This document shows, piece by piece, positions 92 to 56,373 of a DNA stretch of 64,000 bases (position 1 is the stretch's first letter; each line of letters opens with the position of its first letter). The position numbers and the translations under genes are program-made. The notes beneath the pieces were generated by a model. The model had not been told where the DNA came from and searched no databases. It saw only the letters and a program-made list of their open reading frames with translations. Source of the DNA: Candidatus Lustribacter sp. (GTDB lineage: Bacteria; Vulcanimicrobiota; Vulcanimicrobiia; Vulcanimicrobiales; Vulcanimicrobiaceae); assembly GCA_965277805.1 (NCBI GenBank), contig OZ255842.1, forward strand, positions 1,248,001 to 1,312,000, given 5' to 3'.

Positions 92-562
92 ATGCCGCGT
101 AAAGGTCCGGTCCCGAAGCGACCGATTCTCCCCGATCCGAAGTTCAACTCGAAAGTGCTGTCGCGCTTCATCAACAAGGTGATGCTACAGGGCAAGAAGA
201 GTGTGGCGGAGCGTATCTGCTACAGCGCGCTCGAGATCGTCGAGACGAAGTCGGGCCGCGACCCAATGGACATCTTCACGCAGGCGCTCGGCAACGCGAT
301 GCCGCTGGTGGAAGTCCGCCCGCGCCGCGTCGGCGGCGCCACCTATCAAGTTCCGATGGAAGTCCGTCCCGACCGCCGTCAAGCGATGGCGATGCGCTGG
401 CTGATCAATTACGCCCGTGCCCGGCCCGGTCACTCCATGGAAGAAAAGCTCGCAGCCGAATTGATGGACGCCGCCAACAACCTTGGCAACTCGATCAAGA
501 AGCGCGAAGACACTCACAAGATGGCCGAAGCCAACAAAGCCTTCGCCCACTACCGCTGGTAA
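92..562 (+). CDS. rpsG: 30S ribosomal protein S7
   Basis: MPRKG start, [26 protein letters not shown] end. Confidence 0.99.
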
Positions 563-580
563 TCGTACCGCTCTAACATC

Positions 581-2683
581 ATGCCGCTCAACCGCGAACA
601 CCCCCTCGAGAAAACCCGCAACATCGGGATTGCTGCGCATATCGACGCCGGAAAAACGACGGCGACCGAGCGTATTCTGTTTTACACCGGCCGCACGCAC
701 AAAATCGGCGAAGTGCACGATGGTGCTGCGACCATGGACTGGATGGTCCAGGAACAGGAACGCGGCATCACGATCACCTCGGCCGCTACGGCGTGCACGT
801 GGCGCGACACGCGTATCAACATTATTGATACGCCAGGCCACGTGGACTTCACAGTCGAGGTCGAGCGCTCGCTGCGCGTCCTCGACGGTCTCGTCGCGCT
901 GTTCGACTCGGTAGCCGCCGTGCAGCCGCAGTCCGAGACGGTGTGGCGCCAAGCCAACAAGTACAAAGTCCCGCGCATCATCTTCGTCAACAAGATGGAC
1001 CGCATGGGGGCCGATTTCTTCAATTGCGTCGCGAAGATCCGCGAACGCCTCGGCGCGCCCGCCGTTCCGATCCAAGTGCCGATCGGCGCCGAAGCCGATT
1101 TCCTCGGCGTGGTCGATCTCTTCACGATGAAGAAGATCGTCTATACCGACGATGCCGGCTCGGTGATGGAAACCGACGAGAGCCCGACGGGCGAACTGCT
1201 CGAAATCGCGACCAAGTGGCGCGGCGAGCTGATCGAAGCGATCGCCGAGCAAGACGACGAGCTGCTCGAGCTGTTCTTCGACGGCAAAGACATCCCGATC
1301 GATCGCCTCAAGTCGGCACTGCGCAAAGCGACGATCGCCGGCCAGGTGCTGCCGATGCTGTGCGGTTCCGCGTTCAAGAACAAGGGCGTGCAGCCGCTGC
1401 TCGACGCCGTCGTCGACTTTCTGCCCTCGCCGCTGGAAGCCAAGACGATCACCGGCAAGGATCCCAAGACCGACGAAGACATCACCCGCAAGGCTGATGA
1501 TAAGGAACCGTTCGCGGCGCTCGCGTTCAAGATCGCGACCGATCCGTACGGCAACCTGACGTACTTCCGCGTGTATTCCGGCGTGCTCGAAAAGGGCTCG
1601 TACGTCTACAACGCGCGCAGCGGCAAAAAAGAACGCATCGGGCGCATCTTGCGCATGCACGCCAACCATCGCGAAGACATCGACGCGATCGGCGCGGGCG
1701 ACATCGCGGCGGCCGTCGGCATGACCGACACGCGCACCGGCGACACGCTGTGCGATGAGAAGCACCCGATCTTGCTCGAGAACATCGTGTTCCCGGAGCC
1801 CGTCATCTTCCAGGCCATCGAGCCGAAGACCAAGGGCGATCAGGACAAGCTCGGCATCGCCTTGACGCGTCTCGCGCAAGAAGATCCGACCTTCCGCATG
1901 CGCACCGACGAAGAGACGCAGCAGACGATCATCGGCGGGATGGGCGAGCTGCATCTCGAGATCATCTTGGACCGCCTCAAACGCGAGTTCAAGGTCGAAG
2001 CGAACGTCGGCAAGCCGCAAGTCGCCTACAAAGAAGCGATCACGAAAACCGTCGAGCAGCAGGGCAAATTCGTCCGGCAGTCCGGTGGTAAGGGTCAGTA
2101 CGGCGACGTCTGGATTCGTCTGGAGCCGCAGCCGGCCGGCACGGGTTACGTGTTCGAGAACAAAGTCGTCGGCGGTACGGTTCCGAAGGAATACGTCAAG
2201 CCGGTCGGCGAGGGCATTCGCGAAGCGTCCGAGTCCGGAACGCTGGCGGGTTACCCCGTACTCGATTTCAAGGCAACGCTCTACGACGGTTCGTACCACG
2301 ATGTCGACTCGTCGGAAATGGCGTTTAAGATCGCGGCCTCGATGGCGTTCAAAGAAGCCAACAAGAAGGCCGGCCCGATCTTGCTCGAGCCGATCATGAA
2401 AGTCGAAGTGACGACGCCCAAGGATTACTTGGGTGCCATCAACGGCGACTTGAACCGGCGCCGCGGTCAGATCCAATCGCAAGAAGAAGCTCCGGGCGGA
2501 GCCGTGGTGATTACCGCGGACGTGCCGCTCTCCGAGATGTTCGGGTATGCGACCGACATGCGTTCCGCGACTCAGGGCCGCGCGACGTACACGATGGAAT
2601 TCTCGCGCTACGAGAAAGCGCCGAAGTCCGTCGAGGAAGAGATCGTCGCGAAGGCTTCCGGCAAGAAGCTCGCGACCGCGTAG
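581..2683 (+). CDS. fusA: Elongation factor G
   Basis: [17 protein letters not shown] and NKMD GTPase motifs; 700 aa; str operon position. Confidence 0.99.
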
Positions 2684-2742
2684 CCCAAAAAAAGTTTCAC
2701 CTAGTAGCGCACATCTAAACCGAAGGAACACAGAAGCAGATC

Positions 2743-3948
<1,206 letters not shown>

Positions 3949-3962
3949 GTAAGAGAGACATC

Positions 3963-4271
3963 ATGGCGAAGCAGAAAATTCGTATCCGGCTCAAAGCCTA
4001 CGATCACGCGATCCTCGATCAGTCCGCCGAACGCATCGTCGACACGGCCAAGCGTACCGGCGCGTTCGTGAGCGGCCCCGTGCCGCTGCCGACCGAGATC
4101 AACCGGGTTTGCGTGCTGCGTTCGCCGCACGTCGACAAGAAGAGCCGCGAGCACTTCGAGATGCGCACGCACAAGCGCTTGATCGACATCCTCCAAGCGT
4201 CCCCGAAAACGATGGACGCCCTCATGCACCTCGACCTGCCGGCCGGCGTGGATATCGAACTAAAAGCGTAG
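3963..4271 (+). CDS. rpsJ: 30S ribosomal protein S10
   Basis: [24 protein letters not shown]. Confidence 0.99.
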
Positions 4272-5252: not shown

Positions 5253-5513
5253 ATGCTTTCGAATCAAAAGATCGCGGCGATCTACAACCTTCGCACGGCG
5301 GTCGAGGCTAAGGTCAAAGCCGAACAGCGCCTGAAGAACGTACCCTCAGCCGATGCTCGCATCGCGCTGCTGAACGCGACGCTCGAGGTCGAGGCGAAAA
5401 CGCAGACCGCGATCGAGGCCTGTCACGCATGCGGCCGCAAGCACGAACCCGAGGAAATGCCCTGCGACAACGTCATCGAAGTCGACTTCGGCGTCGACCA
5501 ATCGATCGGTTAG
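5253..5513 (+). CDS. Hypothetical small protein with CxxC...H...C motif
   Basis: GGAG RBS upstream; helical N-terminus then CHACGRKHEPEEMPC. Confidence 0.65.
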   Translation: MLSNQKIAAIYNLRTAVEAKVKAEQRLKNVPSADARIALLNATLEVEAKTQTAIEACHACGRKHEPEEMPCDNVIEVDFGVDQSIG

Positions 5514-5929
5514 CCGACGCCGGCGCCCTGCTGCCGGGCGACCGGCAGGCGTTTGGTGAGGCGCACGCACGACCCGCGCTCGTCGAAGTCCACCTGATCC
5601 ATCAGGTGGCGCATTAAGTAGATGCCGAACCCGCGGGGGGCGTCGTGCGCCGGCTTCGGCGCAGACGGATTGCAGAGAAAGCCGCGGCCCTCGTCTTGCA
5701 CTTCGATGACGATGCTGTCCCGCTCGACGAAGACGCGAACTTCGAAACCGCTGCCGGCCTGGTGTCCGTGTTCGGCGGCGTTGGCCAAGGCCTCGCCGAC
5801 GGCCGTTTCGATATCGGCCAAATCGCCGTCCGGGTACCCGAACGAGGCAATATGCGCAATTAACGAGCGTCGCGCAAATGCCGCCGCCCGCCGAGTATTC
5901 GGAAACCGCGCCCGGAAATCACCTGTCAT
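5510..5929 (-). CDS. RsbW/SpoIIAB-like anti-sigma factor kinase (HATPase_c-type ATP-binding protein)
   Basis: N-box AVGEALANAAEHG, G1 DEGRGF, G2 RGFGIYLMRHLMD; start set at ATG 5929 (MTGDF). Confidence 0.85.
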   Translation of the reverse strand: MTGDFRARFPNTRRAAAFARRSLIAHIASFGYPDGDLADIETAVGEALANAAEHGHQAGSGFEVRVFVERDSIVIEVQDEGRGFLCNPSAPKPAHDAPRGFGIYLMRHLMDQVDFDERGSCVRLTKRLPVARQQGAGVG

Positions 5930-6021
5930 AGTTGCGTTAAGACGCGTATACCACGAAACGGCGAAGTCCAACCGCTGCCTCGCTTGAAAGAACCGGCCGG
6001 CTGAATCCGAACCTCCGGGAC

Positions 6022-6447
6022 ATGCCCATTCCGCTCGACGTTTCGTTCGAACGCACGTTTTCTGGTACTCCGAAGCGTATTTACCAGCTCCTGACCGAGA
6101 TGGGGACGTCGGCCGACGCCATCTGGCCATTCGCCTCGCAGCCGTTCATGCGCAGCGCCGGCCCGCTCGTGCCGGGTCAAACCGAGGAGTGGCACCTTGG
6201 GCTGCACGCGGTGCTGGAGTCGGTCGAGCCGGAGAAGAGCATCATCTGGCGGATCGACAACGACGGGGTCGACGGCACGCACGGCTTCACGATCGTCCAA
6301 GACGGCAAGAAGAGCACCGTAATCCACCGGGTATGCGCCGAGCTGTCCGACCTCGACGGCCGGCTGCTCTGGAAGCGGGTGGAAGATGGTCATCAGCGCG
6401 CCATCGAGGGATTGTTCGACAAGCTGGGGCGCGTCCTCAAGCGTTAG
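6022..6447 (+). CDS. SRPBCC/START-fold-like hypothetical protein
   Basis: 141 aa with beta-rich VEPEKSIIWR core and a C-terminal amphipathic helix, as in SRPBCC proteins. Confidence 0.55.
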   Translation: MPIPLDVSFERTFSGTPKRIYQLLTEMGTSADAIWPFASQPFMRSAGPLVPGQTEEWHLGLHAVLESVEPEKSIIWRIDNDGVDGTHGFTIVQDGKKSTVIHRVCAELSDLDGRLLWKRVEDGHQRAIEGLFDKLGRVLKR

Positions 6448-6459
6448 CGGATCCGCTCG

Positions 6460-6858
6460 CTATTTCGGCTTCATCGTGGTGGAGTTGAGGATCGGGATCT
6501 GCGTGTACGCTTTCCCCGCCGGAATCGACGAGAGGTAGGCGTAGATGTTAGCGAGGTCGCTCGTCGGCAGAATTTTCTCGGAGAACGACGGCATGTTTCC
6601 GCTCGGCTTGCGGACGTAGGCGTTCACTGCCGCCCACGGCAGCGGATGCGGCGCTAGCCGGGCGCCGGTGCCGTAGTTGCCCTGACCGACGGTGCCGTGG
6701 CACTCGTAGCAGCCGTAGCGCAAGAACGCGGCTTTGCCGCGCGCCGCATCGCCGGGCGGCGGCGCCGGCGCGGCCGCCGTGGTTTGGGCGAGCGCGCCAT
6801 GGACGGAGAAGAGCGCCGCGGCCATCACGGCGAGTGCGAGCGTTATCAAGCGTTGCAT
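6460..6858 (-). CDS. Monoheme class I cytochrome c (copy 2)
   Basis: Sec signal peptide ending ALA-Q; CYECH heme-binding motif; MPSF distal Met; IYAYL C-terminal helix. Confidence 0.92.
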   Translation of the reverse strand: MQRLITLALAVMAAALFSVHGALAQTTAAAPAPPPGDAARGKAAFLRYGCYECHGTVGQGNYGTGARLAPHPLPWAAVNAYVRKPSGNMPSFSEKILPTSDLANIYAYLSSIPAGKAYTQIPILNSTTMKPK

Positions 6859-6869
6859 CAGCGTAATCC

Positions 6870-8831
6870 TTACCGTGGCTGCGAGACGACGTCGATGACG
6901 GCCGGCAAGCCGCTTTTCACGACCTTCAGCGCGCGCGCGATCGCAGGCGCGAGCTGATCGGGCTGCGTGATCGGACCTTCACCGTGCACGCCCATCGACT
7001 CCGCAAACTTCGCGAAGTCGATGTTCGGGCTCGTGATCAGGGTGCCGGTGCGGGCCATTTCGGGCCCGCGTTCGCGGCGGCTCGCCATGCGCTGAAGGTG
7101 CATCGTTTCCTGATGCCAGGCGCGGTTGTTGTGCACGACCGTCAGCATCGGAACTTTGTGATGCGACGCGGTCCACAGCGTGCCGGGTGCGACCATGAAG
7201 TCGCCGTCGCCGTTGAAGTTCACCGAGTAGCGGCCCTGATCGCGCGCGGCGATCGCCGCGCCGAGCGCCGACGGTAAACCCTCGCCGACGCCGTAGGCGC
7301 CACCGTCGCTGCAGATGTGGTGATACTTGTCGAGGTCCCACAGACGATTCGGATACTGCCCTTGATAGAACGTTCCGGACACGAGCGAGAAATCGTCGTT
7401 CTTGATCTGCGCGTAGACTTCGGCCACCCAGCGGCCGACCGTGATCGGCGATGCATCCCAGCTCGTCGACGCGAGCGCGAGATCCGCCTGACGGCGCTTC
7501 GAGAACGAATCGACGAAGGCTTGAGCGCGGGTGGGATTCTGCGCGCGCCGTTCGCTCGTCATCGCGCGGTTCACCGCGTCGATCAGATATGGCAGCGAGG
7601 CTTCGCTGTCGCCCGCGATCGGCATCGTCGGCTCGTAGAAGCGCTGCTGGTCTTGGTAGTTGCCGGAACCTTGCAGATACAGCGCGTTGATCGAGATGAC
7701 CGTCGTCGTCGGTTTGATGCGCATGGTCGAGGCGCGGACCGGGAAGTCGGGAACGTCGCCGACGAGTCCGAAAAGATCGGTCAGTTCGAGTCCGAGGATG
7801 ACGTCGGCTTTGCCGAGCAGCGTGCGATCGAACGAACCGTTGAGGTGGTGGTTCGTCGGGAAGTTCATGCGATTGCCGTAGTCGATGACCGGGATCTGCA
7901 ACGCTTCCGCGAGTTGCACGAGGTGCGCCATGCCGTCGGCCGTACGCGCGCAGCGGTCGGCGACGATGATCGGGAACTGCGCGTTGACCAGCGCCTTCGC
8001 GACGTCGGCGAGGGCTGCCGGATCGGCCACCGGCGGCCGCACCGGAGCGTATTTCGGCAGCGGCAATTGCTTCTGATCGTTCGGCATCTCGGCCAAATCG
8101 GCGTCGACGATCACCATCGTTGGTCCCATCAACGGAGTCGTTGCGAGCGACGTCGCCTTCATGGTCTCTTCGCCGAACGATTGCAGCGACATCGGTGACG
8201 TATCGTACTTGATGAAGCCGCGCACGATCGCGGCCACGTCGGTGGCCGTGTGGTACCATTCGACGCCGGGCCGGCGGGTTGCACCGTCGGCGATGTTGCC
8301 GACGAAGATCACCATCGGCACGCGCGCCGCGTACGCGTTGTAGATATTCATCGAGGCGTGCTGCAGGCCGACGGTGTTGTGCACGATGATCGCCATCGGC
8401 TTGCCGGCCATCTGCGCGTAGCCCATCGCGATGCCCGACGAAATCTCTTCGTGCACGCACGAGAGCAATTCGGGTTTCGCGTTACCGCCGTAATTGGTGA
8501 TCGACTCCTGGAGTCCGCGGAACGTCGATCCCGGCATGCACGTAATGTAGTCGAAGCCGACGTGCTTGATGCAATCGACCATGTAGTCCGAGCCGGCGTT
8601 GTGTACGTGCCAGCGGTCGACGTCGGGCGCCGGCGTACCGGTTTCTTGGGCCATCAGACGCGGCCCGGGGAGGGGCGCGCTTGCGAGCGGCACGACGGGC
8701 GCGTTGGCTGTGGTCGCGCCGGCAGCGGCTGCCGCCGCCGGTGCGACGCCCGCAGCGGCAGCGCCAGCGCCGCCCGCGGCAATTCCGGCGAGGAATCCGC
8801 GGCGGTCGACTCCGGAATCTTTCTTTGCCAT
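6870..8831 (-). CDS. ThDP-dependent enzyme (AHAS/benzoylformate decarboxylase superfamily) with twin-arginine signal peptide (copy 2)
   Basis: DRRGFLAG Tat motif then Ala/Gly-rich h-region; HEE catalytic Glu; GDGD...HNN ThDP/Mg motif. Confidence 0.9.
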   Translation of the reverse strand: MAKKDSGVDRRGFLAGIAAGGAGAAAAGVAPAAAAAAGATTANAPVVPLASAPLPGPRLMAQETGTPAPDVDRWHVHNAGSDYMVDCIKHVGFDYITCMPGSTFRGLQESITNYGGNAKPELLSCVHEEISSGIAMGYAQMAGKPMAIIVHNTVGLQHASMNIYNAYAARVPMVIFVGNIADGATRRPGVEWYHTATDVAAIVRGFIKYDTSPMSLQSFGEETMKATSLATTPLMGPTMVIVDADLAEMPNDQKQLPLPKYAPVRPPVADPAALADVAKALVNAQFPIIVADRCARTADGMAHLVQLAEALQIPVIDYGNRMNFPTNHHLNGSFDRTLLGKADVILGLELTDLFGLVGDVPDFPVRASTMRIKPTTTVISINALYLQGSGNYQDQQRFYEPTMPIAGDSEASLPYLIDAVNRAMTSERRAQNPTRAQAFVDSFSKRRQADLALASTSWDASPITVGRWVAEVYAQIKNDDFSLVSGTFYQGQYPNRLWDLDKYHHICSDGGAYGVGEGLPSALGAAIAARDQGRYSVNFNGDGDFMVAPGTLWTASHHKVPMLTVVHNNRAWHQETMHLQRMASRRERGPEMARTGTLITSPNIDFAKFAESMGVHGEGPITQPDQLAPAIARALKVVKSGLPAVIDVVSQPR

Positions 8832-8842
8832 GAGGGGCTACC

Positions 8843-9253
8843 TTATTTGGGCGTCATCGTGGAATTGAGTAACGGAAGTTGCGAGCCGGGTTTGCCGGCG
8901 GGGATCGACGAGAGATAGGCATAGATGTCGGCCAGCGTCGCATCCGGCAAGATCTTGACGGAGAACGACGGCATGTCGCCGCGCGGCCGCCGCACGTACG
9001 AACTCACGAGCGACCACGGCGGCGCCTTCGCCGCGATGCGCGCACCGGTGCCGAAGTTCCCTTGGCCCACGGTGCCGTGGCACTCGTAGCAGCCGAAGCT
9101 CATGAAGGCGGCTTTGCCGCGCGCGACGTCACCGGGTGGTGCGGTTGCCGCCGCCGCGGGTGCTGCGGCCGGCGTGCCTTGAGCCGAAGCACCGTGCGCG
9201 CTGACGAGCAGCGCCGCGACCAGCGCGAGCGTGAACGAAGCAATACGATTCAT
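8843..9253 (-). CDS. Monoheme class I cytochrome c (copy 1)
   Basis: MNRIASFTLALVAALL signal peptide, CYECH, MPSF; GAGGGA RBS suits ATG 9253. Confidence 0.92.
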   Translation of the reverse strand: MNRIASFTLALVAALLVSAHGASAQGTPAAAPAAAATAPPGDVARGKAAFMSFGCYECHGTVGQGNFGTGARIAAKAPPWSLVSSYVRRPRGDMPSFSVKILPDATLADIYAYLSSIPAGKPGSQLPLLNSTMTPK

Positions 9254-9264
9254 CTGCATTCCCT

Positions 9265-11238
9265 CTAGCGCGGCTGGCTGACGACGTCGACGAGTGCGGG
9301 CATTCCGTTTTTCACGACCTTGAGCGCGCGTGCGAGCGCCGGACCGAGCTGATCCGGATTCGAGATCGGTCCTTCGCCGTACACGCCGAACGATTGCGCC
9401 AACTTCGCGAAGTCGATGTTCGGGTTGTTGATCAGCGTGCCGATCGTTGCAGTTTGCGGTTGACGTTCGCGGCGGTTGGCCATGCGCTGAAGATGCATTG
9501 CTTCTTGATGCCACGCACGGTTGTTGTGCACGACGGTGAGCAGCGGAATCTTGTGATGCGCCGCCGTCCAGAGCGAACCCGGCTGCACCATGAAGTCGCC
9601 GTCACCGTTGACGTTGATCGCGTACCGGCCCTGATCGCGCGCGGCGAGCGCTGCACCGACGGCGGCCGGCAATTGGTAGCCGACGCCCGACGCGCCGGAG
9701 CCGCCGTTATAGTGATAGGGCTGATCGAGGTCCCACAGCCGTTGCGGCCACGAACCCATTTGACCGGTCGGCCCCACCATCGAGAACGCATCGCCCTTGA
9801 CGAGATTGTGGATTTCGGCGTACATGCGCGGGAGCGAGATCGGCGAAGCATCCCAACCGAAGCCGGCCGTTGCGATCGCTTCTTGCCGGTGTTTGCTCCA
9901 TGAGTCGGCGAAACGCGCGGCGCGCGCGGTGTTTTGCGCTTTGCGTTCGCTCGTGACCGCGCGGCCGATGGCGTCGATGAGATACGGCAGCGAGGCCTCG
10001 GCGTCGCCGGCGATCGGCATCGTCGGGTTGTAGTAGCGCTGCTGATCTTGGTAGTTACCCTGACCCTGCAAGTACATCGAGTTGATGTGAATCGTCGTCG
10101 TGTTCGGTTTGATCTTCATCACGGATTGGCGAACCGGAAAATCCGGCACGTCGCCGACGACGCTGAAGAAGTCGCCCACTTCGAGTGCGAGAATCACGTC
10201 GGCTTGCGCGATCGTCGCACGGTCGAAGGCCGCGTAGAGATGATGGTTGGTCGGGAAGTTCATCCGGTTGCCGATGTCGACGACCGGGATCTGCAGCGAT
10301 TCGGCGAGCTGGACGAGCAGCGCCATGCCGGCCGGCGTGCGCGCCACGCGATCGGCGACGATGACCGGAGTCTGCGCGCCGACCAGGGCCTTCGCAACAT
10401 CCGCGAGGGCCGCCGGATCGGCCACCGGCGGACGCACCGGAACGAACTTCGGCAGCGGCAATTGTTTGGCGTCATTCGGCATTTCGGCCAAGTCGGCGTC
10501 GACCATGACCAGTGCCGGTTCTTGCACCGGCGTCATTGCGAGCGACGTTGCCTTCATGACTTCTTCGCCGAACGATTGCAGCGACATCGGCGACGCATCG
10601 TATTTCACGTACCCGCGCACGATCTGCGCGACGTCGGTCGCGGTGTGGTACCACTCGACGCCCGGCCGGCGCGTCGAGCCGTCGGCGATGTTGCCGACGA
10701 GGATCAGCATCGGCACGCGATCGGCGTACGCGTTGTAGATGCCCATCGAGGCATGCTGCAAGCCGACGGTGTTGTGCACGATGATCGCCATCGGTTTGTG
10801 CGCCATCTTCGCGTAACCATGGGCCATCGCGGCGGAGATCTCTTCGTGCGTGCACGAGAGCAGCTCGGGCTTCGAGTTGCCGCCGTAATTCGTGATCGAC
10901 TCTTGCAGACCGCGGAACGTCGATCCGGGCATACAGGTGATGTAGTCGAAGCCGACGTGCTTGAGGCAGTCGACCATGTAGTCGGAGCCGGCGTTGTGAA
11001 CGTGCCAGCGATCGATCTCGACGGCCGGCGTGCCGGTCTCTTGCGCGACGAGACGCGGGCCGGGCAAACTTGCGCTGGCGTTCGCGATGTTCGGCACGCT
11101 CGTCGTACTCTGCGGTGCGTCCGCGGCCGCGGCAGCGGCGGAAGCTGGTGCTACACCGGCGGCTGCCGCTCCGGCGCCTCCCGCTGCAATACCCGCAAGG
11201 AAAGCGCGCCGGTCAACACCGGCCTTTTTCTTAGCCAC
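9265..11238 (-). CDS. ThDP-dependent enzyme with twin-arginine signal peptide (copy 1)
   Basis: GTG start with GAGGT RBS; DRRAFLAG Tat motif; HEE; GDGD...HNN. Confidence 0.9.
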   Translation of the reverse strand: MAKKKAGVDRRAFLAGIAAGGAGAAAAGVAPASAAAAAADAPQSTTSVPNIANASASLPGPRLVAQETGTPAVEIDRWHVHNAGSDYMVDCLKHVGFDYITCMPGSTFRGLQESITNYGGNSKPELLSCTHEEISAAMAHGYAKMAHKPMAIIVHNTVGLQHASMGIYNAYADRVPMLILVGNIADGSTRRPGVEWYHTATDVAQIVRGYVKYDASPMSLQSFGEEVMKATSLAMTPVQEPALVMVDADLAEMPNDAKQLPLPKFVPVRPPVADPAALADVAKALVGAQTPVIVADRVARTPAGMALLVQLAESLQIPVVDIGNRMNFPTNHHLYAAFDRATIAQADVILALEVGDFFSVVGDVPDFPVRQSVMKIKPNTTTIHINSMYLQGQGNYQDQQRYYNPTMPIAGDAEASLPYLIDAIGRAVTSERKAQNTARAARFADSWSKHRQEAIATAGFGWDASPISLPRMYAEIHNLVKGDAFSMVGPTGQMGSWPQRLWDLDQPYHYNGGSGASGVGYQLPAAVGAALAARDQGRYAINVNGDGDFMVQPGSLWTAAHHKIPLLTVVHNNRAWHQEAMHLQRMANRRERQPQTATIGTLINNPNIDFAKLAQSFGVYGEGPISNPDQLGPALARALKVVKNGMPALVDVVSQPR

Positions 11239-11316: not shown

Positions 11317-12708
11317 TTACTTACTCGGTCCGACCCAGACGGTTTGGATGTTCATGAACTCGCGGATGCCGAGATAGGAGAGCTCGCGCCCGTAGCCGCT
11401 GTGCTTCACGCCGCCGAACGGCAGCCGCGGATCCGACGCCGTCATGCCGTTGATGAACACCGCGCCCGATTCGATGCGCCGTGCAAGTTGTTTGCCGCGT
11501 TCGACGTCGCCGGTCCATAACGCGCCGCCCAAGCCGAAGGTCGAGTCATTGGCTAAAACGACAGCGTGTTCGGCGTCACGCGCGCGGATGACGGCGGCGA
11601 CCGGACCGAACGTCTCTTCCCGGAAGACCGGCATCGTGTCGTCGACGTCGACCAGCACCGTCGGTTCGAAGAACGCCCCCGGACGGCCAGGTGCGGAGCC
11701 GCCGAGCACGACACGCGCGCCCTTTTTCACCGAGCCCTCGATCTGCTTCACCAAGTCGTCGCGCAGATCGGTCCTGGCGAGCGGACCCATCGCGGTTTTC
11801 CGGTCCTCGGGGTCGCCGGTCGTGTAGGCTTTCGATTCTTCGACGAACGCGGCGACGAAGCGGTCGTAGACCGCGTCTTCCACGATGAAGCGCTTGGCGC
11901 AAATGCAACTCTGGCCCGCGTTCTGAAAACGCGCTTTGGCCGCGGTCTTCGCGGCCGCCGGAATGTCGGCGTCGGCCAGGACGATGAAGGCATCGGAGCC
12001 GCCCAGTTCGAGCACGTGCTTCTTGAGCGCGCGGCCGCTTTCACTTGCGACCGAGACGCCCGCCGGTTCGCTGCCGGTGATCGTCACCGCGGCGATGCGG
12101 TCGTCGGCGATCAGGCGCTTGACCTCGGCCCCGGGCACGATCACGGTGGCGAAGATGCCGGGCGGGAAGCCCGACTCGCGGAACGTCTCCTCGATGTCGA
12201 GCGCGCAGCGGGTCACGTTGCTGGCGTGCTTGAGGATGCCGCCGTTACCCGCCATCAGGGCGGGGGCTGCGAAACGGAAGACTTGCCAGTAGGGGAAGTT
12301 CCAGGGCATGACCGCCAGCACGACCCCCAGCGGCTGGTAGGCGATATAGCTGTCCGTTGCGGTCGAAGCGATGTGCTCGTCGGCCAGAAACTTCTCGGCG
12401 TTGTCGGCGTAGAATTCGCACGCCCAGGCGCACTTCTCGACCTCGGCCTCGGCGTCGCCGATCGGCTTGCCCATCTCGCGGGTGGCGTTGAGGGCAAAGC
12501 GAGCTTTGTTCTCCCGCAGGTAGCCGGCGGCGCGCTTCATTAAAGCGCCGCGCTCGGCGAACGAGCGCCGCGACCACTCGCGCTGAGCGGCCACCGCCCC
12601 ATCGAGACGGGCCCCGATCTCAGCTTCGGTATGGAGGGCGAACGATTCTAGCTTGGCCCCGGTCGCGGGGTTGATGGAGTCGACGGTCTTCGGCTGCGCT
12701 GCGATCAT
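11317..12708 (-). CDS. NAD(P)-dependent aldehyde dehydrogenase, succinate-semialdehyde dehydrogenase (GabD1/Sad) type
   Basis: MPWNFP, LELGGSD, NAGQSCICAKR, EETFGP, PFGGVKHSGYGRE. Confidence 0.92.
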   Translation of the reverse strand: MIAAQPKTVDSINPATGAKLESFALHTEAEIGARLDGAVAAQREWSRRSFAERGALMKRAAGYLRENKARFALNATREMGKPIGDAEAEVEKCAWACEFYADNAEKFLADEHIASTATDSYIAYQPLGVVLAVMPWNFPYWQVFRFAAPALMAGNGGILKHASNVTRCALDIEETFRESGFPPGIFATVIVPGAEVKRLIADDRIAAVTITGSEPAGVSVASESGRALKKHVLELGGSDAFIVLADADIPAAAKTAAKARFQNAGQSCICAKRFIVEDAVYDRFVAAFVEESKAYTTGDPEDRKTAMGPLARTDLRDDLVKQIEGSVKKGARVVLGGSAPGRPGAFFEPTVLVDVDDTMPVFREETFGPVAAVIRARDAEHAVVLANDSTFGLGGALWTGDVERGKQLARRIESGAVFINGMTASDPRLPFGGVKHSGYGRELSYLGIREFMNIQTVWVGPSK

Positions 12709-12800: not shown

Positions 12801-12837
12801 GGAACGCCCGGTACCGTGGAACGATACGTCTCCAGGT

Positions 12838-12866
12838 TTGACTTTCTGGCCTCGTGTTGGTATCAT
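12838..12866 (+). promoter_or_regulatory. Sigma70-type promoter for the rplC-rpsM operon
   Basis: TTGACT-N17-TATCAT with TG extended -10. Confidence 0.8.
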
Positions 12867-12872
12867 CTGGCG

Positions 12873-12960
12873 GTTGTGGTCCACGCCGGCCGCGGTACTT
12901 TGCCGTGGCCGACGGAAAGCGTAGTCGATACGCCAGGACCCGTGGACTTCCTAGAGGCGA
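12873..12960 (+). promoter_or_regulatory. Structured 5' leader of rplC; candidate ribosomal-protein autoregulatory RNA
   Basis: GTCCACG(12879-85)/CGTGGAC(12941-47) closes a multibranch containing CGGCCGCGGTA/TGCCGTGGCCG; lies just upstream of the GAGG RBS. Confidence 0.5.
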
Positions 12961-12968
12961 TAACGACG

Positions 12969-13616
12969 ATGAAGAACATCATCGGCCGCAAGGTCGGGAT
13001 GACGAGTGTGTTCACAGCCGATGGGCGCTACGTACCGGTGACGGTAATCGAAGCGGGCCCGTGTACGGTCGTGCAGCGCAAGACGAAAGATACCGATGGC
13101 TACGAAGCCGTCGCGCTCGCCTTCGGCGACGTTAAGAAGTCGCGGGTTACGCGCGCGCTGGCCGGACATTATAAGAAGGCCGGCGTCGAACCGAAGCGCG
13201 ACATCCGCGAGTTTCGCACCGAACTCGAAGGGCTCGACGTCGGCACCGCCGTCACCGTCGAATCGTTCATCGAGGGCGATCGCGTCGACGTGCAAGCCAC
13301 GTCGAAGGGCCACGGCTTCGCCGGCGGCATCAAGCGCCACAACTTCAGCGGCGGCGGCGCGAGCCACGGCTCGATGATCCACCGTCAGCCTGGTTCGAAC
13401 GGCGACACCAACGCCGGTCACACGCCCAAGGGCAGCCGCCGTCCGGGTCACTACGGCGTCGACACCATCACCCATCAGAATCTCGAGATCGTGCGCGCCG
13501 ACGTGGAGCGCAATTTGCTGCTCGTGCGCGGGCCCGTTCCCGGTCCGAAGAACGGGCTCGTCATCGTGACTCACTCGGTCAAGGCCGGCAAGTACCCCGT
13601 TAAGGAAAGCGCCTGA
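12969..13616 (+). CDS. rplC: 50S ribosomal protein L3
   Basis: IGRKVGMT, PVTVIEAGPC, KGHGFAGGIKRHNF; ATG 12969 after GAGG. Confidence 0.98.
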   Translation: MKNIIGRKVGMTSVFTADGRYVPVTVIEAGPCTVVQRKTKDTDGYEAVALAFGDVKKSRVTRALAGHYKKAGVEPKRDIREFRTELEGLDVGTAVTVESFIEGDRVDVQATSKGHGFAGGIKRHNFSGGGASHGSMIHRQPGSNGDTNAGHTPKGSRRPGHYGVDTITHQNLEIVRADVERNLLLVRGPVPGPKNGLVIVTHSVKAGKYPVKESA

Positions 13617-14281
13617 TGCCGCAAGTAATCGATGCGCAGGGCAAAGCCCTCAAAGACATCGCCGTTCCGGACGCCTTCGCGGGCAACGTGTCGGGCAAGA
13701 CCAACGCGATCTTCCGCGCCGTCTTCCGCGAACTCGCCAGCCCCCGCGCCGGCACGCACTCGACGCTCAAGCGCGACGAAGTGCGCGGCGGCGGCCGCAA
13801 GCCCTGGAAGCAAAAGGGCACCGGCCGCGCCCGTCAGGGTTCGATCCGTTCACCGCAGTGGCGTCACGGCGGCGTGGTCTTCGGGCCGCAGCCGCGCAGC
13901 TACGTCAGCGCGCTCAACAAGAAAGAGCGCAAGGCCGCGCTGCTCGCCGCCCTGTCCGATAAGTACCAGAACGGTTCGGTCACGCTGCTCCAAACGGAAA
14001 AGCTCGACCTGAAGAAGACCAAAGATTTTGCCGTGCTGCTGTTCGGTTCGCCGAAGGCCGCCAAGACCGGCGTGCGCACGCTGGTCGTGTTCGCCGAGAG
14101 CGAACTGGCGAGCGTCGGTGAAACGCTGGCGCGCACCGGCAACAACCTCACGCAAGTCGGCGTGACGCACACCGGCGCGCTCGACATCAAAGACATCGTC
14201 GGTTACACGCGGCTGGTGGTCACCGCCGCTGCGAACGATGCGCTGATCGCCCGCTTCGCAAAAACGGAGAAGTCCGCATGA
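13616..14281 (+). CDS. rplD: 50S ribosomal protein L4
   Basis: RGGGRKPWKQKGTGRARQGSIRSPQWRHGG. Confidence 0.98.
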   Translation: MPQVIDAQGKALKDIAVPDAFAGNVSGKTNAIFRAVFRELASPRAGTHSTLKRDEVRGGGRKPWKQKGTGRARQGSIRSPQWRHGGVVFGPQPRSYVSALNKKERKAALLAALSDKYQNGSVTLLQTEKLDLKKTKDFAVLLFGSPKAAKTGVRTLVVFAESELASVGETLARTGNNLTQVGVTHTGALDIKDIVGYTRLVVTAAANDALIARFAKTEKSA

Positions 14282-14586
14282 CCTCGCGCGATATTATCGT
14301 GGCGCCGGTGATCACCGAGAAATCGATGGCCGGCACCGCGTTTCAGCAGTATGCCTTCGAAGTCGCCAAGAGCGCCTCGAAGACGCAGATCAAGTCCGCT
14401 ATCCACGAGATCTTCAAGGTCGACGTCATCAAGATCAATACGGTCAACGTGCTCGGCAAGTCGAAGAATTTCGCGCGCCGCGGCGCGCGCACGTCCGGCA
14501 AGCAGTCGGACTGGAAGAAAGCCATTGTCACCCTTGCGCCGGGCCAAAAAATCGAGCTCGGCGGCGTCAATTATTTTGAGCAATAA
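14278..14586 (+). CDS. rplW: 50S ribosomal protein L23
   Basis: PVITEKS, KKAIVTL; operon position. Confidence 0.97.
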
Positions 14587-14588
14587 CA

Positions 14589-15416
14589 ATGGCCGTTAAG
14601 AAGTACAAGCCGACCAGCGCCGGGCGCCGCTTCATCACCACCGCCGATTTCAGCGGGGTCTCCAAAAAGGATCCTGAGAAGTCGCTGCTCGAGGTCAAGA
14701 AGAAGCATTCGGGCCGCAACAACAACGGCCACATCACGACGCGCCATAAGGGCGGCGGCACGCGCAAGCAGTACCGCATCATCGACTTCAAGCGCTCGAA
14801 GGACACCGTGCCGGCGAAGGTCGCGGCGATCGAATACGATCCCAACCGCACCGCCCGCATCGCGCTGCTCCACTACCGCGACGGCGAGAAGCGCTATATC
14901 TTGGCGCCCGTCGGTCTCGAGGTCGGCGCGGTCGTCGTCTCGGGTTCGGATGCCGACATCAAGATCGGCAACGCGCTGCCGCTGGCGAACATTCCGCTCG
15001 GTACGGTCATCCACAACATCGAACTGCGGCCCGGTGAAGGCGGCAAGCTCGTCCGCTCGGCCGGCTCGTCGGCGCAGCTGATGGCCAAAGAGGGCCAATA
15101 CGCGCAAGTCCGCATGCCGTCGGGTGAAGTGCGCAAGATTCAAGTCGTGTGCCGCGCGACCATCGGTCAACTCGGCAACCTCGATCACGAAAACGAAGTG
15201 ATCGGTAAAGCCGGCCGCCAGCGCCATCTCGGCAAGCGTCCGTCGGTTCGCGGTATCGCGATGAACCCGGTCGACCATCCGCACGGCGGCGGCGAAGCGC
15301 GCTCCACGTCCGGACGTCCGCCGACCACGCCGTGGGGCCAGATGACGATGGGCAAAAAGACGCGCCGCAACAAGCGCACGGCCAACATGATCGTCCGCAA
15401 GCGGAAGGGCAAGTAG
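14589..15416 (+). CDS. rplB: 50S ribosomal protein L2
   Basis: [25 protein letters not shown]. Confidence 0.99.
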
Positions 15417-15417
15417 C

Positions 15418-15693
15418 ATGGGACGCAGTCTGAAGAAAGGCCCGTTCGTCGCGGACCATCTTCTCGCCAAAGTCGAGAAGATGAATTCCACGCGCGAGAA
15501 AAAGGTCATCAAGACCTGGTCGCGTTCGTCGACGATCGTGCCGCAAATGGTCGGTCACACGATCAGCGTACACAACGGCAAGGCGCACATCCCGGTGTTC
15601 ATCACCGAGAACATGGTCGGGCACAAGCTCGGCGAGTTCTCGCCGACGCGCATCTTCAAGGGACACGCCGGCGACAAGGCGGCGGTGAAGTAG
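15418..15693 (+). CDS. rpsS: 30S ribosomal protein S19
   Basis: [23 protein letters not shown]. Confidence 0.99.
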
Positions 15694-15694
15694 C

Positions 15695-16227
15695 ATGACT
15701 GCCGTAGCCGAACGGCCGCAAACCGCGGTCGCACATCTCAAGTTCGCCCGCATGGGCCCGCGCAAACTGCGCCGCGTCGCCGATGCGATCCGCGGCAAGT
15801 CCGTGCGCGAAGCGCTCGTGCTGCTGCAATTCGCCGGCGTGTTCGCATCCGAACCGCTGGAGAAGCTGCTCAAGTCGGCCGTTGCCAACGCCGAGAACAA
15901 CCACAACATGTCGAGCGACGGTCTCTTCATCACGAAGATCACCGTCGACAGCGGACCGGGCGGCGGCATCACCAAGCGCCTGGATCCGCGCGCTCAAGGC
16001 CGCGCCAACTTCAAGCGCAAGCGCATGTCGCACGTGACAATCGCCGTCGGCGCAACGCCGCCGAAGCGTCAGCCGCGCCAGCGCGCCGGTGCTGCGATCG
16101 CGCTCTCGACCGTCGAATCGCGCCGCGCCCAAGCTGCGTCGGCCAAGCCCACCACGTCGCGTAAGAAGAAAGCCGCTCAACCCTCTGCCCAGTCGCAGAT
16201 CGAGCCGCCGTTGGGAGCCTCTGAATA

Positions 16228-16228
<1 letters not shown>
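15695..16228 (+). CDS. rplV: 50S ribosomal protein L22 with C-terminal extension
   Basis: [32 protein letters not shown]; extra ~55 aa basic/Ala-rich tail. Confidence 0.97.
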
Positions 16229-17273
<1,045 letters not shown>

Positions 17274-17274
<1 letters not shown>

Positions 17275-17702
17275 TGTTGACACCTAAGCGCGTCAAATGG
17301 CGCCGTCAGCATCGTGGCCGCATGCGCGGCAAAGCGCTCGTCGGCAACACGCTGACGTTCGGCGAATACGGTCTGCAAGCGCTCGAACCGGTTTGGATGA
17401 CCAACCGGCAAATCGAAGCGGCGCGTATCGCGATGACCCGCCACATTAAACGCGGCGGCAAGGTCTGGATCAAGATTTTCCCCGACAAGTCGGTGACGAA
17501 GAAGCCCGCCGAAGTCCGCATGGGTTCCGGTAAGGGTAACCCCGAGTTCTGGGTCGCCGTCGTGCGCCCGGGCCGGATCATGTTCGAACTGGCCGGCGTG
17601 GAAGAGAAAGTCGCGCGTGAGGCGTTGCGCCTCGCCGCCAACAAGCTGCCGATCGCGACCAAGGTCGTGACGCGTGCGGACGAAGCGGCGGTGTCGGCAT
17701 GA
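17274..17702 (+). CDS. rplP: 50S ribosomal protein L16
   Basis: [19 protein letters not shown]. Confidence 0.99.
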
Positions 17703-17920
17703 AACGCAGCGATCTGCGCAGCCTGCGCGAGCTGACCATCGGTGAGCTCGAAGTCAAGGCCCGCGAAACCAAGGAAGAACTGTTCAACTTGCGCTTTGCG
17801 CTCCGTACCGGCCATCTTTCGGATTTCTCGAAAGTGAAAGCCGCGCGCCGCAGCTACGCGCAAATCCAAACCGCGATCTCCGAGAAGAAGATCGTTGAGG
17901 CACGTCATGGAGCAGCCTAG
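17699..17920 (+). CDS. rpmC: 50S ribosomal protein L29
   Basis: KEELFNLRF; position between rplP and rpsQ. Confidence 0.95.
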
Positions 17921-18200
17921 TACCGTGGACGCCGCGACGTCCGAGCGCTCGCGTAACCGCCGCCGCATCAAGCAGGGGCGCGTCGCGAGCAACAAGATGG
18001 ACAAGACGATCGTCGTCGTGGCCGAAACCCGCGTTCCGCATCCGGTCTACAAAAAAGTCGTCCGGCAGTCGCGGCGTTTCAAGGCGCATGACGAGCAGAA
18101 CACCGCCGGCATCGGCGATCTCGTCCGCATCCAAGAGTGCCGTCCGTATTCCAAAGAGAAGCGCTGGCGCTTGCTCGAGATCGTGGAGCGTGCCAAGTGA
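17907..18200 (+). CDS. rpsQ: 30S ribosomal protein S17
   Basis: [35 protein letters not shown] 17907 after GAGG. Confidence 0.97.
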
Positions 18201-18574
18201 TTCAGCAAGAAACGCGGCTCAAGGTCGCCGATAACAGCGGCGCGCGCGAGCTGCTCTGCATCCACGTGTCCGGCGGCAGCCGGCATCAGTACGCCTTCGT
18301 CGGCGACATCATCGTCGGGACCGTCAAGTCGGCGATCCCCGGTGCGGCCGTCAAGAAGGGCCAAGTCGTCAAGGCCGTCGTCGTGCGCACGTCGCAGCCG
18401 ATGCGCCGTCCCGACGGCTCGGTCATCAAGTTCGACGACAACGCGTGCGTCATCATCAAGGGCGAGAAAGACAACCTCGATCCGCGCGGTACGCGCGTGT
18501 TCGGGCCCGTCTGCCGCGAGCTCCGCGATCGCGGATTCCTCAAGATCGCGTCCTTGGCGCCTGAGGTTCTGTAG
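18197..18574 (+). CDS. rplN: 50S ribosomal protein L14
   Basis: GTG start overlapping rpsQ stop; [22 protein letters not shown]. Confidence 0.98.
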
Positions 18575-18576
18575 CG

Positions 18577-18945
18577 ATGGCCAAAGCACACATCGATTAC
18601 TCCATCCGGAAACCGAAGATCGTGTCGGGCGATACCGTCATGCTCCGGCGCGGTAAGGAGAAGGGCAAACGCGGCATCGTCAAAGCCGTGTTCCCGAAGG
18701 ACGGCAACGCGACCGTTGAGGGCCTCAACGTCGTGAAGCGTCACACCAAGCAAGGTCAGGACGGCTCGCGTTCGGGCGGCATTTTCGAAAAGGAAGCGCC
18801 GATTCCGCTGGGTGCCCTCCAAGTGATCGATCCCAAGACGAACGCGCCGACGCGCGTGCGCCGCATCCGGCAGAACGACGGCACCTCTGTGCGCGTCGCG
18901 AAGTCGGGCGAACAATTGCTCGTGCCGCAGAAGGCCGGGAAGTAA
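18577..18945 (+). CDS. rplX: 50S ribosomal protein L24
   Basis: GDTV..GKEKGKRG KOW motif, VEGLNVVKRH, EKEAPI. Confidence 0.96.
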   Translation: MAKAHIDYSIRKPKIVSGDTVMLRRGKEKGKRGIVKAVFPKDGNATVEGLNVVKRHTKQGQDGSRSGGIFEKEAPIPLGALQVIDPKTNAPTRVRRIRQNDGTSVRVAKSGEQLLVPQKAGK

Positions 18946-18951
18946 GTCACG

Positions 18952-19530
18952 ATGCCAACCGAGTTGCGCCTCAAAGAGAAGTACAAGACCCAAGTGGCGC
19001 CGCAGCTGAAAGAAAAATTCGGCTACAAGAACGTCCACCAGATCCCGAAATTCGACAAGGTCGTCATCAACATGTCGGTGACCGACGCGATCTCGAATTC
19101 CAAGGCTCTGGACGTTGCGCTGCAAGAGCTGCAGACGATCTCGGGCCAAAAGCCCGTGATCACCAAAGCGAAGAAATCCATCGCGGCGTTCAAGCTGCGC
19201 GAGGGGATGAACATCGGCGGTAAGGTCACGCTGCGCGGCGAGCGCATGTACGTGTTCCTCGACAAGCTGTTCAACATCGTGCTGCCGCGCATTCGCGACT
19301 TCCGCGGTCTCTCGCGCAAGTCGTTCGACGGACGCGGCAACTACAACATGGGCCTCAAAGAGCAGCTCGTGTTCCCGGAGATCAACTTCGACAAGGTCGA
19401 CAAGGCGCGCGGCATGGACATCGTGATCGTGACGACGGCTAAAAACGACGAAGAAGCGACGGCGTTCCTCGAATCGATGGGACTGCCACTACAAAAAGGC
19501 CCTGGTGAACGTGTGGGGATCGCAAGCTAA
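18952..19530 (+). CDS. rplE: 50S ribosomal protein L5
   Basis: [31 protein letters not shown]. Confidence 0.99.
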
Positions 19531-19715
19531 TGGCTAAGACCAGTTCGATCGAGCAATCCAAGCTCAAGCCGAAATTCGCGGTGCGCGGGCACAACCGTTG
19601 CCGCGTCTGCGGCCGGCCGCGCGGCTATCTGCGCAAGTTCGCCATGTGCCGTATTTGCTTCCGCGAAAACGCGCACCGCGGTTTCATTCCCGGTATCACC
19701 AAGGCTTCGTGGTAG
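19530..19715 (+). CDS. rpsN: 30S ribosomal protein S14, zinc-binding 61-aa type
   Basis: [10 protein letters not shown]...CRICFRE two CxxC motifs. Confidence 0.98.
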
Positions 19716-19725
19716 AGAGTAGACG

Positions 19726-20130
19726 ATGGGCGTAATCACCGATCCGATCGCCGATCTGCTGACGCGCATTCGCAACGCGAATACCGCCAATCACCAGACC
19801 GTCGACATTCCGGCCTCCAAGATGAAGAAAGCCGTCGCGCAGATTCTCGCCGACGAAGGCTTCGTCACGGCCGTCGAAGAGCTGAAGACCGAAGGTCCGC
19901 AAGGCACGCTTCGCATCCAGCTCAAGTACGGTCCGGAAAAAGAGAAAGTCATCACCGGTCTGCGGCGCATTTCGCGTCCCGGGCTGCGCGTCTACACGAC
20001 GAAGACCGAGATCCCGCGCGTTCTGGGCGGCCTCGGCCTCGTGATCATGTCGACTTCCAAGGGCATCATGTCGGGCAAACGCGCCAAGCGCGAAGGCTTC
20101 GGCGGTGAAGTCCTCGCGTACGTGTGGTAA
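19726..20130 (+). CDS. rpsH: 30S ribosomal protein S8
   Basis: [32 protein letters not shown]. Confidence 0.99.
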
Positions 20131-50497: not shown

Positions 50498-50819
50498 CGC
50501 ATAAGTCTGTGGGTCTCTATGACCGACCAGGCATCATGCGCGGCGAAAGCCGCGTTTTTGTTTGGCCGGGTATTTGAGAACAAAATGATCGACGCGTCGT
50601 TTGGGATTCCGGCTCCACCGGTCCCCGATCGAACGTCGACCGTACAAAGAACTATGACAGCCGGCTCGATCGCAAGGTCGACGCCGAGCCGATCCGATTC
50701 GCAATCGGATCAAAAGCATTCATCCTTAGTGATAGGGATGGAAGCTTCGGGTAAATTTCGTTCAGAAATTTGCCCATGTCAGCGGCTAATAGAGCCTTCA
50801 AAAGGCTCCGTAAAGAAAT

Positions 50820-52325
<1,506 letters not shown>

Positions 52326-52790
52326 AGTACATGTCATTGGATCTCGCCTAGCGCGATCGCAATGACGTACATTCTTAAGTCGACCACAGATGAACCAGAC
52401 GATCAGGGTTCCGCCGGCCAGTTATGGCTAAGGGGGGATGAGATTGAATGGTCGGATGTTTTCAGCATCCGCTGCGCGGCCCTCACTGTGAGGGTCTTTC
52501 ACGAAGGACGAATTTCGTAACAGAAATTCGCCCCTATGCCGGGTTCGCTCGGTAGAAACTGTACTGTTCAGCTTTGAGGGTTCGGACCCTCACGTTCCGT
52601 TGCCGGATCTTTTAAACGATGCCGGCACGGAGATTCGTGAGGAAGTCGACACCTCGATCCTTGAAAACTGCATAGAGAAGAACTTTCATGTGCCAAACAT
52701 GAAAAGCGGCCCGCCCGCAGAGGGTGGGTGCAATTTCGAGTAATGTGGCGCGTTCGAAAGAATGCGGCACAGATTCTTTGCGTCTTAGAA

Positions 52791-56132
<3,342 letters not shown>

Positions 56133-56242
56133 AGACATACGCAAATACCTCGAAATAGACCGGTACATGAAAGTTCTTCTCTGTGCAGCTTTCCGCGTCG
56201 ATCGTCTTGAGCTCCGGCTCGACGTCTACGCGGGATCAGATT

Positions 56243-56358: not shown

Positions 56359-56373
56359 TTACTAACCGAATGC

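Follow-up and report, generated by a model that had tools for sequence, protein, structure and literature searches.

The window, the whole 64,000-nucleotide stretch of Candidatus Lustribacter sp. DNA that was analysed (G000:C1:1248001-1312000 of a 5.5-Mb single-contig genome), carries two tandem gene pairs on its minus strand, each composed of a gene for an enzyme related to thiamine diphosphate (ThDP)-dependent decarboxylases, acetohydroxyacid synthase (AHAS) and pyruvate oxidase (POX), and a gene for a c-type cytochrome. Features were assigned from the open reading frames (ORFs) and Pfam matches. The first gene, ThDP-A (9265..11238), encodes 657 amino acids from a GTG start and is followed by cyt c-A (8843..9259), which encodes a monoheme class-I-like cytochrome c with the motifs CYECH and MPSF and a Sec-type signal peptide; the second pair is formed by ThDP-B (6870..8831; 653 amino acids), a paralogue of ThDP-A with the leader VDRRGFLAG, and cyt c-B (6460..6858; 132 amino acids), a further monoheme cytochrome c with a signal peptide. 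A preliminary description of this DNA had reported tandem ThDP and cytochrome c gene pairs with their motifs, and all of these were recovered in the ORFs and translations. It had also given 11 nt for the gaps within the module, which is correct for two of the three (cyt c-A/ThDP-B and ThDP-B/cyt c-B); the gap between ThDP-A and cyt c-A is 5 nt or 11 nt, depending upon whether cyt c-A starts at the ATG at 9259 or at 9253 (138 or 136 amino acids, within the ORF 8843-9514). A purine-rich, Shine-Dalgarno-like stretch lies ahead of each start in the module. ThDP-A and ThDP-B share 74% identity (484/657) and the two cytochromes 70% (65/93), so the ThDP and cytochrome genes were duplicated as one unit, in agreement with the co-duplication proposed earlier.

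The ThDP proteins and their leaders

The Pfam domains PF02776, PF00205 and PF02775 (TPP_enzyme_N, _M and _C) all scored above their cut-offs in both ThDP proteins, the match to TPP_enzyme_M being weak (40.7 and 36.6 bits). The translations contain VDRRAFLAG or VDRRGFLAG at the N-terminus, H131-E132-E133, G545-D546-G547 ... N572-N573, and VIVADR; in an alignment of 87 homologues E132, D546, G547, N572 and N573 were invariant and G545 was at least 90% conserved, with E132 aligning to the HE(Q) glutamate of catabolic acetolactate synthase (ALS). G545 to N573 correspond to the diphosphate/Mg motif GDG-X(24-27)-NN of the superfamily, and E132 to its cofactor-activating glutamate. The AlphaFold2 model of ThDP-A was of high confidence (pLDDT 87.1, pTM 0.84) except for residues 1-53 (pLDDT <50), the fold beginning near residue 80. 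The proteins belong to the ThDP-dependent decarboxylase/AHAS/POX superfamily, and with its domains, conserved motifs and confident model the ThDP enzyme looks intact.

When the model was used as a Foldseek query, the matches were ALS, glyoxylate carboligase (GCL), 2-hydroxyacyl-CoA lyase (HACL) and benzoylformate decarboxylase (BFDC), with E ~1e-32 and about 20% identity. Among solved structures the family profile matched BFDC best (7e-36) and the single protein matched catabolic ALS best (4.9e-29). These closest solved sequences, BFDC (MdlC; PDB 4q9d, 1bfd) and the catabolic ALS AlsS (PDB 4rjj), have the same fold and are free of flavin adenine dinucleotide (FAD), but they are only ~20% identical and have no signal peptide, cytochrome partner or redox step. 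No curated NCBIfam model reached its cut-off for the ThDP proteins. The best-scoring was PRK08327 (“thiamine pyrophosphate-requiring protein”, uncharacterised), with 253.8 and 234.8 bits against a cut-off of 456; this model begins at residue 82 of the ThDP protein and so holds no leader. PRK08199, PRK08266 and BFDC came next, and the models for enzymes of known function scored far under their cut-offs (BFDC NF005485, 150.2/493; pyruvate oxidase NF006377, 110.8/742; AHAS TIGR00118, 135/538). The names of family members in public databases are generic only. The nearest cousins in the same genome, L005 and L006 (38–39% identity), look like the PRK08327 type: they start straight at the PYR domain, without a leader, and no cytochrome gene follows them. 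The family proteins end right after the last strand (..Q-P-R), whereas L005 and L006 have C-terminal tails.

The putative twin-arginine translocation (Tat) leader of ThDP-A spans residues ~1-34 (~11137-11238, minus strand) and is followed in the model by a disordered linker to about residue 53. Tat signals are marked by the motif S/T-R-R-x-F-L-K, a mildly hydrophobic h-region and an AxA site; by eye, the window copies show a putative motif of this kind (VDRRAFLAGIAAGGAGAAAAGVAPASA), and it is conserved in the family, as the preliminary description would have it. R10, R11 and F13 were each at least 90% conserved in the 87 homologues, where the leader also takes forms such as DRRSFIAG, GRRAFIAG, KRRSFLAG and DRRKFLKE; of the 59 family rows in the tree described below, RR is present in 56, and the other three show RK (L057), RG (the paralogue L004) and an unreadable upstream frame (L094). 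The first 50–70 residues of eight members were compared with NCBIfam, and these N-termini hit nothing but the Tat signals of known Tat substrates (formate dehydrogenase TAT target, CopA, EfeB, PhsA and PlcH). The Tat-signal model TIGR01409 (cut-off 16.7 bits) was passed by four of the eight, all relatives or paralogues (L003, 24.8 bits; L090, 23.7; L038, 21.5; L052, 17.0); three, including the window copies, scored under the cut-off and one gave no match.

The genome encodes TatC (PF00902, 168 bits; G000:C1:4666207-4666830), with a CcsA-type heme-maturation gene about 1.7 kb away, and also an Omp85 protein; subunit I of a heme-copper oxidase is encoded twice. With these genes it is plausible that the organism has a periplasm, exports proteins, attaches heme and possesses a terminal acceptor.

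Two observations on leaders in this genome may be recorded here. The paralogue L004 (G000:C1:1692483-1694414, minus strand) reads GRGGFLKG, with a single Arg, at the place of the RRxFL of the others, and has kept its downstream cytochrome c gene. A fifth ThDP gene of another subfamily (G000:C1:3235685-3237925; 29% identity to ThDP-A), which is followed by a gene for a diheme cytochrome c with a signal peptide, has a Tat-like N-terminus, ..NISRGKLLQGLGAVGLSAAAAS.., with RG for RR, so that one genome holds two RG leaders.

Pairing and predicted docking of the cytochrome

Both window cytochromes scored above the cut-offs for Cytochrom_C and for Cytochrome_CBB3 (PF13442, cut-off 27; 37.1 bits for one and 30.3 bits for cyt c-A). 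Each has CYECH and MPSF and, as seen by eye, a hydrophobic N-terminus ending in ASA or ALA-Q; with CxxCH, a distal Met and a predicted signal peptide they classify, by sequence, as class I c-type cytochromes.

The conservation of the pairing was assessed in a scan of reference genomes, one per species, which gave 77 loci from the best 80 of 113 confirmed relatives. In 73 of the 77 there was at least 450 nt downstream of the match, and a CxxCH ORF was sought within 900 nt on the same strand. Such an ORF lay directly after the ThDP gene in 71/73 loci, 70 found by the scan and one more at L020, where the match end spanned two genes. Pairing with a cytochrome is thus conserved over at least six phyla or classes and not sporadic, in accordance with the earlier claim. 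The partner was monoheme at 45 loci and diheme at 26. Forty-one monoheme partners, cyt c-A included, align as one family with invariant G46, C55, C58, H59, G60, G65, R88, P90 and M94, which agrees with the view that the cytochrome is dedicated to the ThDP protein. When flanking ORFs of at least 90 amino acids were clustered over the 77 loci, the ThDP cluster covered 75 loci and the cytochrome cluster 43 (with a diheme group in addition), while the next cluster reached 12/77; no third conserved gene beyond the pair was found in this clustering. Nor did clustering of ORFs of 35–130 amino acids reveal a small conserved ORF beside the pair, there being only shadow frames of the cytochrome gene. 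Three matches to the cytochrome profile that also contained TPP_enzyme_C (P0123, P0126 and P0131) were considered as fused ThDP-cytochrome proteins and rejected, as they are garbled read-throughs of adjacent genes with internal signal peptides.

The window’s own genome served as a control. Twenty-eight matches were merged into 25 ThDP-family genes, and a CxxCH ORF was sought up to 1 kb downstream of each. It was present after five, namely this family's four members plus a distant ThDP gene whose N-terminus is signal-like, and after none of the other 20 (0/20). The ThDP/cytochrome pairing is more than chance. Pairwise distances between ThDP proteins correlated with those between the first heme domains of their partners (52 loci; Mantel r 0.85, with 0/2000 permutations as high), consistent with the two genes having travelled together, though the value is descriptive only since shared ancestry alone can yield such a correlation. 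The number of hemes changes four times along the ThDP tree.

We examined physical pairing by folding ThDP-A residues 45-657 together with cyt c-A residues 30-136, each with its alignment, and heme. The predicted complex had an ipSAE of 0.88 in three runs, compared to 0.00 for the best of three controls; in the calibration of the method, the mark was reached by 116/157 solved complexes and 2/215 mismatched pairs, a yardstick only roughly valid here because own alignments were used and a ligand was added. Contacts agreed by at least 94% between runs and the partner pLDDT was at least 89. As a check on the pairing the prediction supports direct binding of cytochrome to ThDP protein, and we know of no solved ThDP-cytochrome complex that the prediction model could have memorised. 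The contacting parts of the cytochrome are residues 52-58 (around C55-x-x-C58-H59), 60-69, 92-98 (around M94) and the C-terminus; those of the ThDP protein are the helix that directly follows N572-N573 (residues 577-597), the loop 329-338, which holds the invariant H332, the helix 444-478 and the last residues, 655-657. Cytochrome residues 52-58 touch ThDP residues 577-585, the H332 loop and 655-657. The family ends after its last strand while the cousins have tails, and the cytochrome may take the place of the C-terminal lid of cytoplasmic relatives.

Distribution, paralogues and genomic surroundings

Loci were found in Eremiobacterota, Armatimonadota, Limnocylindria (Chloroflexota) and Acidobacteriota, and among the Alpha-, Beta- and Gammaproteobacteria in Burkholderiaceae (Paraburkholderia, Caballeronia, Burkholderia), Bradyrhizobium, Beijerinckiaceae, Acetobacteraceae, Micropepsaceae, Caulobacteraceae, Sphingobium nicotianae and Halioglobus. 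The distribution is patchy: when the genomes of 40 relatives were searched, strong matches occurred in 7/7 of the same genus, and outside the genus 3/33 had any match, all weak (~1e-32). The module is present in cultivated strains of Paraburkholderia, Caballeronia and Sphingobium, among them Paraburkholderia caffeinilytica, P. acidicola ATCC 31363, Caballeronia udeis and Sphingobium nicotianae, and is frequent in uncultured peat and soil lineages.

The tree comprised 55 of the 77 loci together with the window’s two copies, two further paralogues from the same genome and the two cousins; the 22 loci left out were frameshifted, near-duplicate or had incomplete genes. The branch parting L005 and L006 from the 59 family rows had 100% SH-aLRT support. 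ThDP-B is sister to the ThDP-A orthologue group, and several genomes of the genus hold both A and B copies; the duplication that gave the window’s A and B copies lies inside the Lustribacter lineage. The two further paralogues are full length (50% and 47% identity), and each is followed by a c-type cytochrome gene, diheme in one case and monoheme in the other. On the tree, this genome's four paralogues are spread over three deep subclades, which suggests different substrates, and the four pairs probably do differ in substrate. A Beijerinckiaceae metagenome-assembled genome (L090:1583-6304) likewise carries two ThDP-cyt c pairs in tandem, whose leaders are near-identical, apparently a separate recent duplication. 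In the closest relative genome the ThDP-B counterpart (G003:C5:2604-4428) was matched in two frames (residues 48-373 and 373-657), representing a frameshift or an assembly error.

Upstream of ThDP-A lies an aldehyde dehydrogenase gene (11317..12708, minus strand; Pfam Aldedh, 458 bits), whose product is succinate-semialdehyde-dehydrogenase-like and without a signal peptide (NCBIfam NF006915, 579 bits, under the cut-off of 730). The gap to ThDP-A, read from the DNA, is 78 nt, and all five genes run head to tail on the minus strand in the order aldehyde dehydrogenase, ThDP-A, cyt c-A, ThDP-B, cyt c-B. The aldehyde dehydrogenase is a lineage-specific neighbour, outside the conserved module; its cluster occurs in 7/77 loci, all in Eremiobacterota. 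Other neighbours are likewise lineage-specific: an integrase, SecA, porins (8 loci) and DctA (4 loci), the latter two in Burkholderiaceae, LysR, malate synthase, LigAB and a TonB receptor. A substrate assignment from such neighbours (porin, DctA, aldehyde dehydrogenase, LysR, malate synthase, LigAB or TonB receptor) was considered and rejected on this ground.

The ThDP/cytochrome cluster and a few small genes are situated between the genes for S7/EF-G/EF-Tu/S10 (92-4271) and L3/L4/L23/L2... (12816-20130), that is, inside the usual str-S10 ribosomal gene run, and the same placement recurs in relatives, where EF-Tu (L026) or L3/L4 (L020) adjoins the pair. Positions 5510-6130, a short way downstream of the cluster and also on the minus strand, encode a HATPase_c_2 protein (anti-sigma-factor/serine kinase type, 85 bits). 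Further along the window, an rRNA operon (50819-56359) accounts for its low-GC, high-skew stretch; the 23S rRNA match (52791-56135) is complete at both ends and 3345 nt long, the model having 2925 positions, so the gene holds about 400 extra bases internally (an insertion or expansion).

Proposed mechanism, alternatives and meaning

We consider it probable, though by no means assured, that each pair encodes an oxidoreductase which depends on ThDP, is exported by Tat and hands the electrons of a 2-oxo acid or an aldehyde to its own cytochrome c. From the domain content and motifs, the conservation of leader and pairing, the predicted complex, and the Tat, heme-maturation, oxidase and outer-membrane genes we infer the export, the electron transfer, the absence of a flavin and the chemistry. 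The ThDP protein would fold and load ThDP and Mg2+ in the cytoplasm, be exported in the folded state by the Tat system via its RRxFL leader, and dock in the periplasm with the Sec-exported monoheme cytochrome c, whose heme would be attached outside. Decarboxylation of a 2-oxo acid, or addition of an aldehyde, would form hydroxyalkyl-ThDP (the enamine); the two electrons of this intermediate would reach the docked cytochrome c one by one and from there the respiratory chain, and acyl-ThDP would be hydrolysed to the carboxylic acid. The predictions of the preliminary description that are open to computation all held, and its interpretation is supported to that extent.

Parts of this scheme have counterparts in known systems. 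The family shares its three-domain ThDP fold, HEE glutamate and GDG..NN with two pyruvate oxidases, Lactobacillus plantarum POX and E. coli PoxB (pyruvate:quinone oxidoreductase, once called “pyruvate dehydrogenase (cytochrome)”), and the proposed chemistry is alike, hydroxyalkyl-ThDP being converted to acyl-ThDP with electrons going to the respiratory chain or an acceptor; these enzymes differ in being cytoplasmic or peripheral on the inner face, in having FAD and in passing electrons to quinone or O2, whereas the present family carries a putative Tat leader and is paired with a cytochrome c of its own. It is established from ferricyanide and dichlorophenolindophenol (DCPIP) assays, pyruvate:ferredoxin oxidoreductase (PFOR) and POX that ThDP intermediates reduce one-electron acceptors. 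The 2-oxoacid:ferredoxin oxidoreductases PFOR and oxalate oxidoreductase need no flavin to move electrons singly from their ThDP intermediate onto a metal centre and are a precedent for one-electron ThDP chemistry, although they are of another fold family, use [4Fe-4S] clusters, and are cytoplasmic and oxygen-sensitive. In SorAB sulfite dehydrogenase, flavocytochrome c sulfide dehydrogenase (FccAB) and the quinohemoprotein/pyrroloquinoline quinone (PQQ) dehydrogenases, a cofactor-loaded periplasmic subunit docks a small Sec-exported c-type cytochrome, the catalytic subunit being Tat-exported in SorA and FccB. The proposed working is similar, with electrons going to the docked cytochrome c, but the catalytic cofactor in these enzymes is molybdopterin, FAD or PQQ, in none of them ThDP, and they have no sequence relation to the family.

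Several points weigh against the proposed scheme. The known oxidising members of the fold (POX, PoxB) route electrons through FAD, and we know of no precedent for direct transfer from a ThDP intermediate to heme. The predicted interface residues were no more conserved than the rest (19/58 compared to 175/525). A ThDP monomer was folded with the cytochrome, while active sites in this superfamily form between two subunits, and a second ThDP subunit might cover the predicted cytochrome surface. The window leaders scored only 9.8 and 13.5 bits against the TIGR01409 cut-off of 16.7, and RR is replaced by RG in one paralogue of this genome and by RK in one relative. At 2/73 loci (L069 and L089) the ThDP protein keeps its leader but is followed by unrelated genes, with no adjoining cytochrome. 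Finally, no conserved transporter, regulator or pathway gene that would point to a substrate was found among the neighbours of the 77 loci.

In a first alternative the same complex is exported but, like PoxB and POX, holds FAD in its middle domain, so that electrons pass from ThDP to FAD to heme c in a periplasmic, flavocytochrome version of pyruvate oxidase. The HEE motif and three-domain layout are shared with pyruvate oxidases (model NF006377, 110.8 bits), the top structural matches include two FAD-binding enzymes, glyoxylate carboligase and AHAS, and FAD is known Tat cargo. The preliminary description had pointed to the letters VADR where FAD-binding relatives have GxG, and these are indeed present in the window copies, whose PVIVADR stretch has no Gly; some homologues carry VGR, TGR or SGR at this position, a Gly that speaks for the FAD reading. 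Against FAD in the window copies are this missing Gly, the weak TPP_enzyme_M match, and the best solved-structure matches, catabolic ALS and BFDC, which are FAD-free and thus suggestive of flavin independence. On balance a FAD relay seems unlikely.

An exported, non-redox decarboxylase, lyase or carboligase of the BFDC or benzaldehyde lyase (BAL) kind, with a co-transcribed cytochrome c that is structural, regulatory or serves another enzyme, we judge to be quite unlikely. The characterised enzymes closest to the family (BFDC, catabolic ALS, BbmA, HACL) catalyse non-redox reactions, and in the profile alignment S106, H155 and H332 sit where BFDC 4q9d has S, H and H, which we take to be its catalytic residues; yet a dedicated cytochrome family adjoins the gene in nearly all loci, with no third conserved gene as a redox partner, and the predicted complex sets the heme motif near the ThDP motif. 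That the ThDP protein stays unexported, its N-terminus being a membrane anchor or unrelated extension and the enzyme lying on the cytoplasmic side, is very improbable: it would fit the sub-threshold window leaders and the RG and RK variants, but the partner cytochrome has a signal peptide and c-type cytochromes mature outside the membrane, the RRxFL motif, Ala/Gly-rich h-region and AxA layout are kept over phyla, relatives pass TIGR01409, and the cytoplasmic cousins have no N-terminal extension.

A broader proposal can be put forward more tentatively, as something we regard as possible and would stop short of calling probable. The family may represent a new class of respiratory periplasmic dehydrogenase, with ThDP as sole organic redox-entry cofactor and as a Tat-carried cofactor, the enamine being oxidised directly, with neither flavin nor iron-sulfur clusters, by the cytochrome c docked to it, the cytochrome replacing the C-terminal lid, and paralogous pairs (four here) that in acidic soils and peat act on different small 2-oxo acids or aldehydes. 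To our knowledge, ThDP enzymes are regarded as residents of the cytoplasm or of organelles, and the cofactors usually listed as Tat-exported do not include ThDP. In the full-text literature, subscription-only papers apart, nothing was found on a ThDP enzyme that is exported or that works with cytochrome c, and neither a curated family (NCBIfam) nor a solved structure (PDB) describing a ThDP-cytochrome pair was found; in these three sources there was no already characterised orthologue, in line with the preliminary description. One candidate, PMC12502724, was rejected as a description of such an enzyme, the passages at issue mentioning only ThiC. ThDP oxidoreductases and periplasmic dehydrogenase-cytochrome c pairs are both kinds already known; the present pair is, as far as these searches reach, undescribed in print.

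If the proposed scheme is true, ThDP would become a new cofactor class for periplasmic respiratory dehydrogenases, beside PQQ, molybdopterin, flavin and heme, and it would pose the mechanistic question of one-electron transfer from a Breslow/enamine intermediate to heme. As the module also occurs in cultivated Paraburkholderia, Caballeronia and Sphingobium strains, bench work is possible now. For the organisms that carry it, the module would provide a route to oxidise 2-oxo acids or aldehydes outside the cell without uptake, and among the uncultured lineages of peat and soil it may play a part in the turnover of organic acids.

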